Below the pieces are notes generated by a model. It was not told the DNA's origin and did not search any database. It saw only the letters and a program-made list of their open reading frames with translations. This document shows, piece after piece, positions 6,918-45,288 of a stretch of DNA of 64,000 nucleotides (position 1 is its first letter; each line of letters begins with the position of its first letter). The DNA lies in sequence record OZ335959.1. One strand, given 5' to 3'. Origin of the DNA: a phage. The position numbers and the translations under genes are program-made.

Positions 6918-6918
<1 letters not shown>
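6721..6918 (-). CDS. hypothetical protein (65 aa from ATG overlapping pseT stop; track ORF extends to 6948)
   Basis: Internal ATG at 6916-6918 gives a 1-nt overlap with the pseT stop. Confidence 0.4.

Positions 6919-8139
<1,221 letters not shown>

Positions 8140-9574: not shown

Positions 9575-9575
<1 letters not shown>
9538..9575 (-). promoter_or_regulatory. early promoter module (-35 GTTTAC 9566-9571)
   Basis: GTTTAC and TGTG-TTATAGTA on minus strand upstream of alc. Confidence 0.45.
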
Positions 9576-10720
<1,145 letters not shown>

Positions 10721-12410: not shown

Positions 12411-14675
12411 TCATAATTTACAGGATGAACAATCTTCAGCTTTTGGAGTTTCTATTTCATAATCATCAGTACCAGAACCGTCACGGGTATTATGATAATA
12501 GAAATTTTTTCCGCCAAAATACCAAAAATACAAAAGGTCATCAATCATTATTGACATTGGAACCTTTCCTTTTGGAAAAATCTGTGGGTCATAATATGTA
12601 TTCGCTGAAGCTGATTGACACACCCATTTAAGCATAATAGCTACCTGCGTAAGATAAGGTTTATTACCTTTCTTAGCTAATTTCCACGTATAATCATATA
12701 GGTCTATGTTATGCTCAATATTGGGCACGACTTGATTAAAGGAACCCTCTTTTGATTCTTTAACAGAGACTGGTCCACGTGGAGGCTCGATACCGTTTGT
12801 ACTGTTAGAAACTTGGGAAGATGACTCACATGGCATAAGCGCTGATAATGTGCTATTACGGATGCCAAAGAGCTTAAGGTCTTCCCGCAGCGACGACCAG
12901 TCACAAACGTATTTTGGAGCTGCGATTTGGTCAATCTTTTTATTGTACCAGTCAATAGGTAATTCGCCTCGAGACCAACGAGTGTCTGAATAATATTCGC
13001 AAGGTCCTTTTTCTTTGGCGAGCTTAATGGATGCTTTAATGAGTCCATACTGTAATCTCTCGAATAGTTCATGTGTTAAATCGTTAGCATCTTCATAAGA
13101 AGCAAAATTACTTGCCAGCCAAGCTGCATAGTTAGTAACACCTACGCCAAGGTTTCGACGCTTTTTAGCTTTTTCTGCTTCAGGAACCGGATATCCTTGG
13201 TAGTCCAAAAGATTATCAAGAGCACGAACTTGGACTTCTGCCAATTCATTAATTTTATCTTGGTCTTGCCAATCAAAGTTATCTAACACAAATGCAGATA
13301 ACGTGCACAATCCAATTTCAGCATCAGGGCTATTCACATCATTTGTTGGAATAGCAATTTCACAACACAAGTTACTCTGACGAATAGGTGTCTTTTCACG
13401 AATAAATGGCGTATAGTTATTCGTATTATCAATGAACTGTACATAAATCCTTGCTGTTCCTGAGCGTTCAGTCATGAGCAATTCAAACAGTTCACGGGCT
13501 TTAATACGCTTTTTACGAATATTAGGGTCTTTTTCTGCAGCTTCGTATAATTCACGGAAACGGTCTTGGTCTTTAAAATAAGAATAGTAAAGTTCGCCGC
13601 CCATTTCATGCGGACTGAACAAAGTAATGTAATCATTCTTTCCAAATCGTTCCATCATCAAATCATTCAGCTGGACGCCATAATCCATATGACGGATACG
13701 GTTTTCTTCTACACCTTTGTTATTTTTCAAAACGAGAAGATTTTCAACTTCCAAATGCCAAATAGGATAATAAGCAGTAGCAGCGCCGCCACGAATTCCA
13801 CCCTGTGAGCATGATTTAACAGCAGTCTGAAAATGTTTCCAAAAAGGAATAACACCAGTATGGCGTACTTCGCCTGTGCCAATCTTAGAACCTTCGGCAC
13901 GAATCATACCAACGTTAATACCAATTCCAGCACGTTTGGAGATATATTCAACAATTGAAGCGGAAGCCTTATTGATAGACTTTAATGAATCACCTGCTTC
14001 AATAACAACGCATGAACTAAACTGTCGAGTCGGAGTACGGCAACCAGCCATAATAGGAGTTGGTAATGAAATCTGTCGAGTAGATACTGCTTCATAAAAA
14101 CGAATAACATGTTTTAATCTATCAACAGGTTCATCTTGATGTAATGCCATTCCAATAGTCATAAATGCAAACTGTGGAGTTTCATAAATTTGACCAGTGG
14201 TTTTATCTTTAACTAGATATTTTTCTTTTAATTGCATCGCCCCGGAATAAGTAAATTCCATATCCCGTTCGTGCTTAATTTTTGATTCTAAAAATGTAAT
14301 TTCTTCTGCTGAATATTTTGACAACAATTCAGGGTCGTATTTACCTTCATTTACACAGTAAGAAATATGGTCAATAAATGAACGTGGTTCATACTGCCCG
14401 TAAACATGCTTACGAAGAGCGAACATTAAGCAGCGTGCAGCTACATATTGATAATCAGGCTCTTCAACTGAAATAGAATTCGCAGCAGCCTTAATTACAA
14501 TGGTTTGAATGTCATCAGTTGTCATTCCATCACGGAGATATGATTTAATATTTTCATATAATTCATAAGGATCTACAGATGTTCCTTCAGCTGCCCAAGA
14601 TAAAACTTTAATAATTTTTTGCGGATCAAAGCTCTGAGAAACACCACTACTTTTGATAACATTAATTAATTGCAT
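12411..14675 (-). CDS. nrdA: ribonucleotide reductase large subunit
   Basis: 754-aa ORF with ATP-cone N-terminus and C-terminal CxxC tail; class Ia R1. Confidence 0.95.
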   Translation of the reverse strand: MQLINVIKSSGVSQSFDPQKIIKVLSWAAEGTSVDPYELYENIKSYLRDGMTTDDIQTIVIKAAANSISVEEPDYQYVAARCLMFALRKHVYGQYEPRSFIDHISYCVNEGKYDPELLSKYSAEEITFLESKIKHERDMEFTYSGAMQLKEKYLVKDKTTGQIYETPQFAFMTIGMALHQDEPVDRLKHVIRFYEAVSTRQISLPTPIMAGCRTPTRQFSSCVVIEAGDSLKSINKASASIVEYISKRAGIGINVGMIRAEGSKIGTGEVRHTGVIPFWKHFQTAVKSCSQGGIRGGAATAYYPIWHLEVENLLVLKNNKGVEENRIRHMDYGVQLNDLMMERFGKNDYITLFSPHEMGGELYYSYFKDQDRFRELYEAAEKDPNIRKKRIKARELFELLMTERSGTARIYVQFIDNTNNYTPFIREKTPIRQSNLCCEIAIPTNDVNSPDAEIGLCTLSAFVLDNFDWQDQDKINELAEVQVRALDNLLDYQGYPVPEAEKAKKRRNLGVGVTNYAAWLASNFASYEDANDLTHELFERLQYGLIKASIKLAKEKGPCEYYSDTRWSRGELPIDWYNKKIDQIAAPKYVCDWSSLREDLKLFGIRNSTLSALMPCESSSQVSNSTNGIEPPRGPVSVKESKEGSFNQVVPNIEHNIDLYDYTWKLAKKGNKPYLTQVAIMLKWVCQSASANTYYDPQIFPKGKVPMSIMIDDLLYFWYFGGKNFYYHNTRDGSGTDDYEIETPKAEDCSSCKL

Positions 14676-35221: not shown

Positions 35222-35371
35222 TTACTGCATGACTGTGATAACTGTCATGATAACACGTTGAATTCCGAATGCAAGAAGACCTCCTGCTACGGCTGGAACA
35301 ACACCTAAACCCGCTAGTAAAATGCTACCAGATACTAATGCCGCGCTTGTAATACCAATGAATGGACTCAT
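35222..35371 (-). CDS. small hydrophobic membrane protein (49 aa)
   Basis: ORF below track cut-off; ATG overlaps gene 52 stop; Gly/Ala-rich TM sequence. Confidence 0.4.
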   Translation of the reverse strand: MSPFIGITSAALVSGSILLAGLGVVPAVAGGLLAFGIQRVIMTVITVMQ

Positions 35372-36696
35372 TTGATTTCCTCTAAATCTTTAGTGTATTC
35401 GGTAACTACATCAGTAGTTTTCCAATATTCGTTTTCTTCTTTCTTAGCTTTAGCTTCTTCAGCAAGTTTCTTTGCTTCGTCGGAAGTCATATGAAAAATA
35501 TTCATTCCAACTAGTTTATCAACATAAGAAGAATACATATCAATTTTAGAAAGTTCTTCGGTCAGTTCTTTGCGAGTTTTACCTTGTACAACAATTTCAC
35601 CTGAAATCACTTTCTTAATGAAATGCGCCTTGGCAAAGGCTAAACGAAATGCTGATTCAGTTTCTTTGATTTTGTTATCAATTCGTTTTTGGACATAAGT
35701 TTTACGAACTTCAACGAAGTCTTTGATTAAATCAACTACGTTATCGTAAACTTGTAGCTTTCCTTTCTCATTAATAACGGTAATATTCTGGGAACGACGC
35801 TCAATCAACCCGAAGTCTTTCATAATTTTTGCATGGCGTTCTTCTTCGTTATCACTCAAAGAGTATTCTTTGCGGAATTTAACTTTGAAGCCAAAGCCAT
35901 GCTCACCACAAGCATCATCCCACGTAATGAAGCCTTTATCTTCAAGCGGGTCTAAGATTTTACTCACATAAGTTTCACGATCATACTTATACGGAATCTC
36001 AGTGATATGCATTTGAGTTCGTGAAGTAAACTTGTACGTTCCACGAATTTCATATTGACCGTCAATTTCAACGACTTCACCACGAAATTCTGGGAATTCT
36101 ACCTTAGGTTTAGTTACTTTCTTTCCTTGAAGAGCTTGCAATACAGCTTTCTTGACAGAAGAAACACTATGAGGAAGAATGTAAGTTGCATAACCAGTTG
36201 CAATACCGGAAACACCATTAAGAAGAACAGTAGGAATAATAGGCAAATAGAAAGCAGGCGGAATGTGTTCTTTATCTTGATGTACCGGAGCATATTCAGT
36301 ATCTTTATATACATTATAGAAATTTTTACTTACACGAGCAAAAATATAACGACTTGCCGCTGCTTTTTGAACGGTACGAGAACCAAAGTTTCCTTGACCA
36401 TCTAACAAAGGAAAGTTATTATTCCAAGTGTTAGCCATCAAAGCACCTGCGTCTTGCGCAGAGTTTTCACCATGATGATATCCAAGGTCTGCTACACCGC
36501 CTGCAATAGAAGCGAGTTTGTGAAACTTATCTTTATTTCCTCGTGCCAAATCAAGAGCTCGAGCAATAACAAATCGTTGAACTGGCTTAAATCCATCAAT
36601 CATATTTGGGATAGCACGATTTTCAACCGTGTACATAGCATAAGCCAATGCTTCATTATCAATGATACTTTTTAAATCGCGATTATTCAGTTGCAT
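35368..36696 (-). CDS. 52: DNA topoisomerase II medium subunit gp52
   Basis: 442-aa ORF, GyrA-like breakage-reunion domain (same length as T4 gp52). Confidence 0.92.
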   Translation of the reverse strand: MQLNNRDLKSIIDNEALAYAMYTVENRAIPNMIDGFKPVQRFVIARALDLARGNKDKFHKLASIAGGVADLGYHHGENSAQDAGALMANTWNNNFPLLDGQGNFGSRTVQKAAASRYIFARVSKNFYNVYKDTEYAPVHQDKEHIPPAFYLPIIPTVLLNGVSGIATGYATYILPHSVSSVKKAVLQALQGKKVTKPKVEFPEFRGEVVEIDGQYEIRGTYKFTSRTQMHITEIPYKYDRETYVSKILDPLEDKGFITWDDACGEHGFGFKVKFRKEYSLSDNEEERHAKIMKDFGLIERRSQNITVINEKGKLQVYDNVVDLIKDFVEVRKTYVQKRIDNKIKETESAFRLAFAKAHFIKKVISGEIVVQGKTRKELTEELSKIDMYSSYVDKLVGMNIFHMTSDEAKKLAEEAKAKKEENEYWKTTDVVTEYTKDLEEIK

Positions 36697-36700
36697 AAAT

Positions 36701-36841
36701 TTACCATACTAGTGAATGTAGTGCCATAATAACATCAGAAATGAAAAGCACGACTTGAATTAATCCGAACATTACTCCATAATATAGTGCTACCAATAAA
36801 GTAGCAAGGGCTAATGAATAGCCCAAGATTTTCTTAATCAT
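36701..36841 (-). CDS. small membrane protein (46 aa)
   Basis: Hand-translated: MIKKILGYSLALATLLVALYYGVMFGLIQVVLFISDVIMALHSLVW; below track cut-off. Confidence 0.4.
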   Translation of the reverse strand: MIKKILGYSLALATLLVALYYGVMFGLIQVVLFISDVIMALHSLVW

Positions 36842-36992
36842 TAGTAGATAACAACACAAATGTTAAATATGCACACATACCCTGGGCTAAAGCTTGTGAA
36901 AACACACTGCTAGCATCGATACAGATAGTTAAAACACATGCTACTATCCAACAAATAAATGAAATAACTCCTAATAATTTTGCGATATTCAT
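36834..36992 (-). CDS. small membrane protein (52 aa)
   Basis: Hand-translated: MNIAKLLGVISFICWIVACVLTICIDASSVFSQALAQGMCAYLTFVLLSTND. Confidence 0.4.
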   Translation of the reverse strand: MNIAKLLGVISFICWIVACVLTICIDASSVFSQALAQGMCAYLTFVLLSTND

Positions 36993-36999
36993 ATTTTCC

Positions 37000-37080
37000 T
37001 CACTGGCGTCCGAAGACGCCTTTGGTTTTAAGATTGTTACGATAGAACTGCATCACATGTTCGTTATGGAAATTACTCAT
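37000..37080 (-). CDS. stp: Stp peptide (26 aa), activator of host PrrC anticodon nuclease
   Basis: Hand-translated [26 protein letters not shown], matching T4 Stp as I recall it. Confidence 0.8.
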
Positions 37081-37246
37081 ACACACCACACATTTTGCAT
37101 AAACGTTCAAAACAGATAAATCCGCCACCTACACACATCACGACAGCCACATTATCATTAAGAGGTAGACCTAAAGCCATAAAGATTCCGGTCACTGTGA
37201 ATAAGGCTAAAACTAATAGGTAACCCATTACAAATAGAGCTTTCAT
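37073..37246 (-). CDS. small membrane protein (57 aa)
   Basis: Hand-translated [57 protein letters not shown]; start overlaps ndd stop, stop overlaps stp start. Confidence 0.4.
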
Positions 37247-37701
37247 TAGTATGCCTGTAAAACAAATTTAAAGTTATCAGCCAACATACGATTCATTTCT
37301 TCAAGTGTTTGATACTCAGAATGATGATTACGAGTAAACGCTAAAGCTAACTGACCTTTTCCAAATCCTGTCGTCAAAGGTTTCATCTTAGAAGCAGGAA
37401 GATAAAATACTGTATATGGAACATTATTATTTGCAATAGTACGCGCAAGCTGAGACCGACGCTGACGAATATGACTTAGAACTGCACTGAATCCTTGCTT
37501 AGAACGCTGATTACCTACATAAAATCGTGCAGATACACACGGACTATCAAATGGACCACCAAATTTACTCACTAAAAAGTAAAATCCAGGTGTAGATAAA
37601 ATGTCTTTATGTGGAGTTCCAAAAACCCATTCACCGCCCTTGATTGTACCAATAACAGTAGCACCTGCATTATTCAAATCAGTAACAGTCATGTATTTCA
37701 T
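37246..37701 (-). CDS. ndd: Ndd nucleoid disruption protein
   Basis: 151-aa ORF, same length and position as T4 ndd. Confidence 0.75.
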
Positions 37702-37760: not shown

Positions 37761-37976
37761 TTAATCGTCGCAGTCGACGCTCAATTCCCAGAACTCTTCT
37801 ACAGTATAAGTTTCAGTATCGTTTTCAATACAGAAACGTTCATTACTGTTATTTGCTAAAGTAGCATTAACTGTCATTTTCTCGCTAGTGCTCTTAAGAG
37901 GTGAAATACGAATTAACTGATCACCACTATCCAAGCAAAAAATTTCGCCAACTTTTACATCTTTAAAAATTTTCAT
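37761..37976 (-). CDS. hypothetical protein (71 aa)
   Basis: ORF. Confidence 0.45.
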   Translation of the reverse strand: MKIFKDVKVGEIFCLDSGDQLIRISPLKSTSEKMTVNATLANNSNERFCIENDTETYTVEEFWELSVDCDD

Positions 37977-43434: not shown

Positions 43435-43470
43435 ATTAATTATACCACATCCTTGTGGTAAAGTAAACTA
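43435..43470 (-). promoter_or_regulatory. early promoter module (-35 GTTTAC 43463-43468)
   Basis: Conserved module overlapping 3' end of gene 39. Confidence 0.45.
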
Positions 43471-45288
43471 TTGGCTCATCCATTCTTTACGAAGGTCAGC
43501 ATTATCTCCCATGAGCATTTCAAAAAGCTCTTTCCAGTTCTCAGGAAGTTTAACAACATCATATACTGGGTTTTGAATCATCTCACGATATTCAGATTTT
43601 TCCAAAGAGCCAAGTCCCTTAATATAACGGATGCTATGTTTAGGTAGAGCATCTTTGGCACTCTCATATTCAGCGACTGTATAAAACCATTCTTGTTTTT
43701 TACCGACCTGAGCGATGATTACAGGAGTTTTGACGAAGCGAATTCTTCCTTGTTCAAACAGTTCTGGCCAATTGCTAAAAAATCCGAGCAGAGAAGGATA
43801 AATGCTTCCTAGACCATCATGGTCAGCATCGGTCATAATAGCAATATTATGATAATTCAAGTTTTCAGCTTTTTCACCAAGAACTAATCCAGTGATTGCG
43901 CAAATATCAAACAGTTCTTTGTTTTTAAGCATATCGGCATAAGACATACCCCAGCTATTAAGAACTTTACCACGCAATGGATAACCACCATGAAGTTCTT
44001 TATCACGAACATCAATAAGATATCCGATAGCAGAATCACCCTCAGTCAAGAAAAGAGTAGTGTCAGCGTCTTTACCGCAAAGATTCGCTTTAATATGTTT
44101 ATGAACCTTAGCTTTAGAAGCCTTTTTAGCTGCTTTAGTTTCAGCTGCTTTTTCTGCAGCCAATTTACGAGCCAAAGCAGCTTCAATAATTGGCATTAAA
44201 ATTGCTTCATTATTTAAAATAGCACGTGAAATCTTTTTAGCATCAAGCTGAATATGACTACGAATTTCACCAAATGGAGAAGTCAAACGCTCTTTAGTCT
44301 GAGAATCAAATCGCATGTTTTTCATATCACGAACAAACATAACGATAGTCAAACATTCTTTAACACGTGCTTTAGTTACATCAATTTTGAACTTGCGTTT
44401 GATTTGTGGAATAAGGTCTTCACAAATATCATCCATAACGCAGTCAATGTGATGGCCACCATTCTTAGTATGAATGTTATTAACGTATGTTAATTGACGA
44501 AAACCATCAGGTGAACGACCAACCGCAATAGAACAATTTTCTTGTTCTTGAACAATAGCATGCTCATCATATTGGCGTGCATATTTCTTAAAATTACCCT
44601 GAACCTTTTTACCATTAAAGGTAAATTGAATATCAGGATAAACTACTGCAAGTGTCTGGAGACGATCCAGTGTAATGTCAAGATAAACTTGAGACAGCTC
44701 ATTAGTTTCAAATGACATAAAATCAGGAATGAAAGTAACACGAGTTCCTTTCCATTTTCCGGGAATATCTTCCCATGATTTATTTTCCATGCCATTTGAA
44801 CAACGAACTACAATATTATTTTGACCGTCGCCAGTTTCACCGACAAACATCACAGAAAAAATGTTAGTTAAACTAGAACCAACACCGTTCATACCGCCAG
44901 TGACGCGTTCTTTATCATCGCCGAAGTTACCACCTGCTTTTGGAATAGTCCAAGCAGCAACAGGACCAGGAATTTCTTCACCAGTAGGTGTTTTAACCAT
45001 CGCTTGTGGAATACCGCGACCGTTATCTTCAACTGTTACCTGATTATTTTTAATGGTAACATTAATTTTATTTGCGAATTTAAACTTAGTACGAATACCT
45101 TCATCTACTGAGTTATCGATAATTTCATCAATAAGCTTAACAAGACCAGGTACATACTGAACACTTTCCCATTTACCAAACAGAAAGCGCTCATGCATTT
45201 CATTAGCGGAAGAGCCAATGTACATGCCGCTACGCTTTTTGATATGTTCAATATCGCTCAGAATTTTAATTTCATTCTTAATCATCAC
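43468..45288 (-). CDS. 39: DNA topoisomerase II large (ATPase) subunit, single unsplit polypeptide (T4 gp39 + gp60 equivalent)
   Basis: 606-aa continuous ORF with GyrB-like ATPase and TOPRIM regions; no internal stop or bypass gap. Confidence 0.92.
   Translation of the reverse strand: MMIKNEIKILSDIEHIKKRSGMYIGSSANEMHERFLFGKWESVQYVPGLVKLIDEIIDNSVDEGIRTKFKFANKINVTIKNNQVTVEDNGRGIPQAMVKTPTGEEIPGPVAAWTIPKAGGNFGDDKERVTGGMNGVGSSLTNIFSVMFVGETGDGQNNIVVRCSNGMENKSWEDIPGKWKGTRVTFIPDFMSFETNELSQVYLDITLDRLQTLAVVYPDIQFTFNGKKVQGNFKKYARQYDEHAIVQEQENCSIAVGRSPDGFRQLTYVNNIHTKNGGHHIDCVMDDICEDLIPQIKRKFKIDVTKARVKECLTIVMFVRDMKNMRFDSQTKERLTSPFGEIRSHIQLDAKKISRAILNNEAILMPIIEAALARKLAAEKAAETKAAKKASKAKVHKHIKANLCGKDADTTLFLTEGDSAIGYLIDVRDKELHGGYPLRGKVLNSWGMSYADMLKNKELFDICAITGLVLGEKAENLNYHNIAIMTDADHDGLGSIYPSLLGFFSNWPELFEQGRIRFVKTPVIIAQVGKKQEWFYTVAEYESAKDALPKHSIRYIKGLGSLEKSEYREMIQNPVYDVVKLPENWKELFEMLMGDNADLRKEWMSQ

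Follow-up and report, generated by a model that had tools for sequence, protein, structure and literature searches.

Gene order and junctions

The window analysed here was a 64,000-nucleotide (nt) stretch of phage DNA (sequence record OZ335959.1). Between the genes ndd and 52 it contained four short open reading frames (ORFs). These encoded a predicted two-helix inner-membrane hairpin of 57 amino acids (aa; 37073..37246, phrog_5941 / pVOG VOG5642), the 26-aa soluble peptide Stp (37000..37080, PF08133, phrog_6763), the 52-aa hydrophobic hairpin protein Ac, product of the acridine sensitivity or 'resistance' gene (36834..36992, phrog_2501), and the 46-aa hydrophobic protein gp52.1 (36701..36841, DUF7396, PF24129, phrog_3595). 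A first-pass annotation had reported a Stp peptide among three hydrophobic micro-proteins, and all four ORFs were found on the minus strand with the coordinates and lengths it gave. The ORFs flanking stp do encode real small hydrophobic proteins, with grand average of hydropathy (GRAVY) values of 1.68 for gp52.1, 1.42 for Ac and 1.39 for the 57-aa protein; Stp was hydrophilic (-1.03). Each of the four matched a curated family over its full length (gp52.1, PF24129 3.5e-23; Ac, phrog_2501 3.7e-25; Stp, PF08133 2e-21; the 57-aa protein, phrog_5941 8.2e-28), and on these matches the micro-ORFs are far beyond chance.

The order of transcription was ndd, the 57-aa ORF, stp, ac, 52.1 and gene 52, and all genes between 35368 and 37976 lay on the minus strand. 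At the upstream end of this coupled string stood ndd, encoding the 151-aa nucleoid disruption protein (37246..37701, PF06591 8.4e-89), and at its downstream end gene 52, encoding the 442-aa medium subunit of topoisomerase II (35368..36696), which is labelled thus in all matching phage records. The ndd stop and the start of the 57-aa ORF overlapped by 1 nt in the sequence TAATG. The stp start lay over the stop of the 57-aa ORF with an 8-nt overlap (ATGAGTAA), and the 52.1 start lay over the ac stop, also with an 8-nt overlap (ATGATTAA). Between stp and ac there was a 7-nt spacer containing a GAGG Shine-Dalgarno sequence, used by ac, and a 4-nt spacer separated 52.1 from gene 52. The earlier description of the micro-ORFs as overlapping one another and ndd thus held for these three overlaps and failed for stp and ac, which lie apart. 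Neither the 57-aa ORF nor 52.1 had a Shine-Dalgarno sequence of its own.

Positions 36601-37350 were 99.9% identical to Escherichia phage ECp13 and 98-99% identical to ime09, Sf24 and their relatives, all of them Tequatrovirus. We consider it very likely that the locus is the standard early gene string of the ime09/ECp13 lineage of this genus, and not that of T4, tightly packed and largely coupled in translation. Its micro-genes had already been deposited, three as named T4 genes and one as a 'hypothetical protein' family, the ORFs being 96-100% identical to the deposited sequences.

Evidence for coding in the 57-aa ORF

The match of the 57-aa ORF to phrog_5941 covered residues 1-57 of 57, which places it in a family of unknown function; phage SA21RB annotates the gene as pVOG VOG5642. 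Synteny was compared in ten loci from seven named Tevenvirinae genera plus Marfavirus, the genera listed being Tequatrovirus, Dhakavirus, Marfavirus, Jiaodavirus, Winklervirus, Karamvirus and Kanagawavirus. A homologue followed ndd directly in all ten loci, among them JS98, Klebsiella EI, KP179, Serratia X20, Kosakonia Kc304, Citrobacter CkP1, Erwinia Gravdalen, Enterobacter IME523 and Edwardsiella PEi26. The TAATG junction with ndd was present in the window and in seven of the nine distant loci compared.

Annotation of the gene and of its neighbours was inconsistent among these phages. In JS98 (RefSeq NC_010105) the 57-aa gene, at 1201-1374 of the compared stretch, was unannotated. CkP1 carried an annotation on the opposite strand (1182-1379 of the compared stretch), and KP179 annotated the gene from an internal methionine. 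SA21RB and ECp13 lacked an annotation of stp, and ECp13 also lacked one of 52.1.

An ORF of this size could be no gene at all, being instead a chance frame, the reverse of an opposite-strand gene such as that annotated in CkP1, or a mere coupler of stp translation to that of ndd. The missing annotation in RefSeq JS98, the strand chosen in CkP1 and the lack of a Shine-Dalgarno sequence are all compatible with this explanation. So is the opposite strand, which was free of stops for 27-57 codons across the homologous stretches. In T4, moreover, 52.1, ac and stp have RNAs of the early class and mass spectrometry did not detect their proteins, Ndd being early as both RNA and protein (PMC9697503, supplementary file 4). 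However, the start and stop of the 57-aa ORF were kept, and down to 33% identity no internal insertion or deletion was seen; its length was 57 codons in all of the ten other loci except Gravdalen, which had 58. Residues M1, G20, G26, E47, R48 and G54 were invariant, and M7, Y9, F22 and P28 nearly so. Variability was highest at the third position of the sense codons (0.62), intermediate at the first (0.44) and lowest at the second (0.32), and comparison with JS98 gave a non-synonymous rate (dN) of 0.156, a synonymous rate (dS) of 0.390 and a dN/dS of 0.40. The fairly open antisense strand probably accounts for the wrong-strand annotation in CkP1, but its open length was not conserved and the periodicity fitted the sense frame only. 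The ORF also shares its orientation and the TAATG overlap with ndd, and its match to a curated PHROG family is strong (8e-28). We regard the non-coding explanation as highly improbable; judged by its pattern of substitution, the 57-aa ORF is a genuine gene under purifying selection.

Absence from T4 and distribution of the 57-aa gene

By both annotation and alignment, T4 (NC_000866) has no gene between ndd and stp, and there ndd abuts stp through TAATG. T4 equals the window minus 166 nt, the stretch that leads exactly from the 57-aa ORF's ATG to that of stp, with ATGA at both bounds (TAATGA ... TATGA; window 37078-37246 against T4 165585). The stp ATG, which overlaps the stop of the 57-aa gene in the window, overlaps the ndd stop in T4, so that T4 stp takes over the TAATG coupling to ndd that is held here by the 57-aa gene. 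As read from this alignment, the T4-type absence is a tidy example of a microhomology deletion that preserves translational coupling.

A probe for the T4-type ndd/stp junction found it in 518 phage records. The 57-aa gene was found in 22 Tequatrovirus-type records (95-99% aa identity) and 15 Dhakavirus-type records (about 70%). It has been kept in about 4% of Tequatrovirus records, and about 96% lack exactly the 166 nt. More broadly, tblastn detected homologues in 242 phage records, adjoining ndd in every locus fetched. Members of phrog_5941 / pVOG VOG5642 stand as a 'hypothetical protein' after ndd in ime09, Sf24, Shfl2, JS98-like phages, Klebsiella Jiaodavirus and other Tevenvirinae; the family has no T4 member and no Pfam entry, and no literature on it was found. 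The protein in the window was 96-98% identical to the ime09 and ECp13 copies, in the same synteny, and showed no notable difference from the family.

An alignment of the third ORF with T4 ndd.1 had earlier been suggested, and this identification was rejected. The homologue of ndd.1 is a separate 71-aa ORF (37761..37976, minus strand, phrog_2183 1.7e-37) outside the micro-protein cluster, 68/71 identical to its T4 counterpart, and in T4 no ORF separates ndd from stp. T4 ndd.1 lies on the opposite side of ndd from the 57-aa ORF and encodes 71 aa with many charged residues (as judged from sequence in the homologue at 37761-37976); the likeness between the two is that of a small ORF near ndd and nothing else.

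In the reading that we hold with high confidence as a whole, the 57-aa gene is an ancestral Tevenvirinae gene lost by T4. It may alternatively have been gained recently by ime09, ECp13 and Shfl2 through recombination with a T-even-like phage, the ancestor having been T4-like. The small share of Tequatrovirus records that carry the gene fits such a gain. So does the variability of the interval between ndd and gene 52, which holds different small genes in each genus, and modular exchange is documented in the neighbouring ndd.4/.5 region (PMC4122927). However, the gene had the same position and TAATG junction across the ten loci, including those of Dhakavirus, an E. coli genus that likewise has stp. 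Removal of the stretch between the two ATGA repeats gives the T4 arrangement directly. The Tequatrovirus copies were about 72% identical to that of JS98, a divergence broadly like that of Stp (77%). We consider a recent gain unlikely.

Predicted form and possible role of the 57-aa protein

An AlphaFold2 model of the 57-aa protein had helices at residues 2-24 and 31-52 with the conserved G26-x-P28 turn between them (mean predicted local distance difference test, pLDDT, 71.5). Basic residue 2 and the conserved tail E47-R48 ... C-G-V-[Y/I]-[K/E], taken with the positive-inside rule, suggest a hairpin with both termini in the cytoplasm (N-in/C-in). AcrZ and T4 Imm, small inner-membrane regulators with a hairpin or a single span, are alike in kind, that is, in size, hydrophobicity and predicted helical membrane topology; no match in sequence or structure was found.

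Detectable relatives were confined to T4-like phages. The ORF had no Pfam or NCBIfam family, and a word-indexed protein search returned three matches. A profile search of 1.84 billion representatives recovered about 11 small clusters of 47-61 aa for the family and no bacterial or distant family, nor any outside T4-like phages. Three long hydrophobic or repetitive proteins in the same search look spurious. Comparison of the model with the PDB using Foldseek gave nothing with E < 1; the generic helical hairpins that were listed all had E > 1 and were uninformative. A zinc-binding or disulfide micro-protein built on C38, C45, C50 and C53 was considered and rejected, no cysteine being invariant (10 of 12 homologues had C53; C38, C45 and C50 were poorly conserved). 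Paralogy with 52.1 or Ac was also rejected (hhalign probability < 1%).

We suggest, tentatively and at somewhat less than an even chance, that the 57-aa protein is an early, Ndd-coupled inner-membrane protein with a dispensable, host-dependent task. It would be made early, in step with Ndd, by way of the TAATG stop/start overlap, and would insert into the inner membrane as an N-in/C-in helical hairpin. The conserved Glu-Arg ... Cys-Gly-Val-[Tyr/Ile]-[Lys/Glu] tail would then stand at the cytoplasmic face, and the protein could act as an accessory factor contacting a component of the host inner membrane.

The constant position of the gene directly behind ndd, and the stop/start overlap with ndd that was conserved in nearly every genus examined, could also mean that the protein is a partner of Ndd, for example a membrane anchor that moves the host nucleoid to the cell periphery. 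The Ndd note in the T4 record does mention binding of host DNA to the membrane. However, T4 and the 518 other records with the T4-type junction have ndd without the 57-aa gene, and Ndd in the window was 144/151 identical to T4 Ndd, with no sign of adapting to a partner. That T4 stp takes the coupling position suggests that the overlap serves economy of expression and not stoichiometry. A partnership with Ndd is, in our view, improbable.

T4 uses small membrane proteins for exclusion, lysis and defence tasks (Imm, Sp, RI and RIII). The micro-proteins of the window are small and membrane-type, are expressed early and lie in an accessory region that varies, and they might likewise serve to exclude superinfecting phages, to time lysis or to counter defence, for instance by blocking a membrane-bound abortive-infection effector. 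Searches of Pfam, NCBIfam, PHROG and, with Foldseek, the PDB (E < 1) gave no likeness in sequence or fold to exclusion, lysis or anti-defence proteins, and Ac has a different documented phenotype. Such roles seem to us rather doubtful.

Stp in the window and in other phages

Identities to T4 were 441/442 for gp52, 45/46 for gp52.1, 51/52 for Ac, 26/26 for Stp, 144/151 for Ndd and 68/71 for Ndd.1. The identification of the 26-aa peptide as Stp was fully borne out. It matched PF08133 ('anticodon nuclease activator') over residues 1-26 of 26 with 75.3 bits against a cut-off of 25, and phrog_6763 with 4.4e-21. Loss-of-function mutations of Stp cluster at residues 4-14, and the functional part is the N-terminal 18 residues (PMC3014915). 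By this criterion the peptide in the window showed no divergence at residues needed for PrrC activation, the N-terminal 18 residues, and indeed all 26, being those of T4. Stp inhibits type IC restriction enzymes (EcoprrI, EcoR124I), an inhibition that in prr+ hosts unmasks PrrC; PrrC then cuts tRNA-Lys, which is repaired by PseT and Rnl1 (PMC3014915; PMC12707154). For the peptide in the window, both type IC inhibition and PrrC activation would follow from its identity with the assayed T4 peptide. T4 stp encodes the same 26 residues in the same place, downstream of ndd and upstream of ac, 52.1 and gene 52.

Both repair enzymes had been placed in the window and domain searches agreed. The gene pseT (6918..7823, minus strand) encodes the polynucleotide kinase/3'-phosphatase that heals the PrrC cut (PF25109 2.8e-60, PF13671 1.8e-23), with kinase and HAD phosphatase domains. 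The gene rnlA, or gene 63 (9575..10699, minus strand), encodes the sealing enzyme RNA ligase 1 (PF09511 2.2e-25, PF20819 7.4e-40), with a nucleotidyltransferase and a C-terminal domain, and the two form the tRNA repair pair. The connection of Stp, PrrC, PseT and Rnl1 is textbook material. Stp itself is soluble and cytoplasmic and is not known to be linked in function to the membrane proteins beside it, and other phage families have Stp without them. The host protein StpA, to which a literature match to 'stp' referred, is unrelated.

Within stp, the final codons (G-V-F-G-R) contained a GGCGUC-UUCG-GACGCC tetraloop hairpin (37005..37020, minus strand), which stands just before the ribosome-binding site of ac. 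Read on the plus strand, this hairpin was followed by a T-run (TTTGGTTTTA) and scored as an intrinsic terminator; phage SA21RB annotates it as a terminator. JS98 keeps the hairpin through a G-C to G-U change, and the stp of Kagunavirus encodes the same GVFG by other codons, without the hairpin. Its role may be to stabilise the mRNA or to terminate antisense transcription.

Homologues of Stp were found well beyond the T-even phages. With Stp as query, tblastn gave matches to residues 1-18/19 in about 190 GenBank records of siphophages of 40-50 kb. In three loci that were fetched (Tunavirus SA30RD, Tlsvirus phSE-2 and Klebsiella phage YX3973) there was an unannotated 26-aa Stp-like ORF with its own Shine-Dalgarno sequence, at 1501-1581 of the stretch examined in each. 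The ORF of SA30RD had a GTG start, phSE-2 had a polynucleotide kinase gene 0.9 kb downstream, and the YX3973 peptide was MSNWHNEHIMQWYRRHIKAITNSYEV. The peptides of these siphophages (about 41-53 kb) had a conserved N-terminal 18 (MS[NS]WHNEH[VI]MQ[FW]YR..[IL]K) and a divergent C-terminus. When IMG/VR was scanned with a degenerate DNA pattern, 53 loci with many 25-27-aa variants of Stp were found, and in one metagenomic contig the peptide was fused in frame to the downstream ORF. No copy of the pattern was found among 185,579 bacterial genomes.

Siphophages of the genus Kagunavirus also carried the peptide. Raoultella phage RP180 had an unannotated near-T4 Stp of 25 aa at 12484-12561, just behind a promoter-like site, in a RefSeq record without annotation of it, and KY295895 (24401-24461) also had a near-T4 Stp. 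In Kagunavirus stp heads an apparent operon, its stop overlapping the start of the next ORF (ATGA). Over codons 1-24, the stp genes of RP180 and of the window differed by nine synonymous and no non-synonymous changes, which points to horizontal transfer together with strong selection at the level of the peptide.

Homologues of Stp in siphophages were described in none of the papers found, and they were not mentioned in the 2010 and 2025 reviews (PMC3014915 and PMC12707154) or in the 2024 TLS re-annotation. The conservation of the N-terminal 18 residues with a free C-terminus fits the known relation of structure to function and suggests a mobile family of anti-type-IC peptides. Its natural home would include siphophages presumed to have unmodified DNA (T1/TLS-like Drexlerviridae and Kagunavirus), where it would be the first gene behind an early promoter-like site. 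If Stp is a mobile anti-restriction gene, this would explain why a phage with glucosyl-hydroxymethylcytosine DNA carries a peptide that mainly exposes it to PrrC.

Ac and gp52.1

Two of the three flanking proteins, put forward earlier as candidates for host takeover or exclusion, were already named T4 genes, Ac with an acridine-sensitivity phenotype and gp52.1 as a member of DUF7396; the proposed alignment with T4 held for these two, the ndd.1 homologue being a different ORF. T4 ac and 52.1 have the same order and the same 8-nt overlap as in the window. Ac differed from T4 in a single extra Thr, three codons before the stop, which is reported to be a common variant (phage PP01) with unchanged acridine sensitivity (bioRxiv 10.1101/2025.06.30.662393). 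In the same work a G38R change gave acridine resistance and D26-A27 formed the turn between two helices; G38, D26 and A27 were all present in the window. Ac renders infected cells sensitive to acridines and, when expressed in E. coli, sensitises cells to acriflavine and ampicillin (bioRxiv 10.1101/2025.06.30.662393; PMC13250531), and it has been proposed to insert into the inner membrane and impair AcrAB-TolC efflux or permeability (bioRxiv 10.1101/2025.06.30.662393). No NCBIfam or Pfam family matched Ac above threshold, and an assignment as a bacteriocin was rejected as a sub-threshold match (14.8 bits against a cut-off of 150).

The gene 52.1 encodes 46 aa from its ATG, and the ORF could be extended to 52 aa from a TTG. 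Its product differed from T4 in one Ala-to-Thr change and matched PF24129 over residues 1-46 of 46 (81.9 bits against a cut-off of 27) and phrog_3595 (1.2e-25). In seven of the ten other loci an orthologue lay directly before gene 52; two more had a probable copy with an internal start, and none was found in Gravdalen. Residues L15, G22, G26, L32, F33, D36, I38 and S43 were invariant. Searches for ribosome-profiling, CRISPRi-ART or HIDEN-SEQ data turned up nothing specific on the micro-genes of this locus in the main texts.

Elsewhere in the window, the ORF list contained a single 606-aa ORF (43468-45288, minus strand). It lies downstream of rIIA, in the place of the split genes 39 and 60 of T4, and suggests an unsplit large subunit of topoisomerase without the gene-60 arrangement of T4, in keeping with a phage other than T4.

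A variable slot between ndd and gene 52

The region that separates ndd from gene 52 was a slot whose hairpin-sized hydrophobic proteins varied from genus to genus. The 57-aa family came first in all ten loci examined and DUF7396 lay directly before gene 52 in most. Between them were varying combinations that included Ac-type proteins with the motif GETSVISQA. Among the loci examined, Stp was found in the slot only in phages of E. coli (Tequatrovirus and Dhakavirus). Two further families were seen in the slot. One, of 46-53 aa, had the form FIELI...FFxGxWxP (M[IV][IL]..F[IL]E[LF][IL]...FFTG.W.PS...) and was present in JS98, X20, Kc304, Gravdalen, IME523 and PEi26, with a possible divergent member in EI. 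The other, of 43 aa (MKAFLCCVW...), was present in Kanagawavirus phages.

That Stp occupies the slot only in E. coli phages, among families that differ across genera, indicates that the micro-proteins are unrelated accessory genes and Stp a lineage-specific insert. The three micro-proteins are best described as members of three unrelated families gathered in a variable slot, and not as one module built around Stp.

Weighing the reading and its implications

Several points weigh against the reading of this locus as an ime09/ECp13-type string with a gene that T4 has lost. The ime09 lineage could have regained the 57-aa gene by recombination instead of keeping it from the ancestor, and the data fit both. 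As 518 related phages, T4 included, manage without the gene, any function it has must be dispensable or host-specific. Confidence in the AlphaFold2 model was moderate, with an alignment of four sequences, and for a span of the membrane the model's second hydrophobic stretch is short; the positive-inside signal behind the N-in/C-in topology is weak. Both the 57-aa protein and gp52.1 are known here from sequence alone. Finally, the efflux-pump model of Ac is a proposal in a preprint and not a demonstrated interaction.

Taking the two micro-genes together, we offer with less than even confidence the view that the 57-aa gene is an ancestral Ndd-coupled gene with a specific target in the host inner membrane, and Stp a mobile anti-type-IC micro-gene. 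The 57-aa protein would have been overlooked because the model phage T4 deleted its gene. Genes missing from T4 stay nameless, and the 57-aa gene, stp and 52.1 are annotated inconsistently. The interval between ndd and gene 52 appears as a pool of hairpin micro-proteins from unrelated families, at least four or five in number, of which Ac alone has a phenotype. A phage of the ime09 type is a natural system for the 57-aa gene, the fourth of these families. The siphophage homologues of Stp, if active, would turn a one-phage anecdote into a widespread family of anti-restriction peptides.

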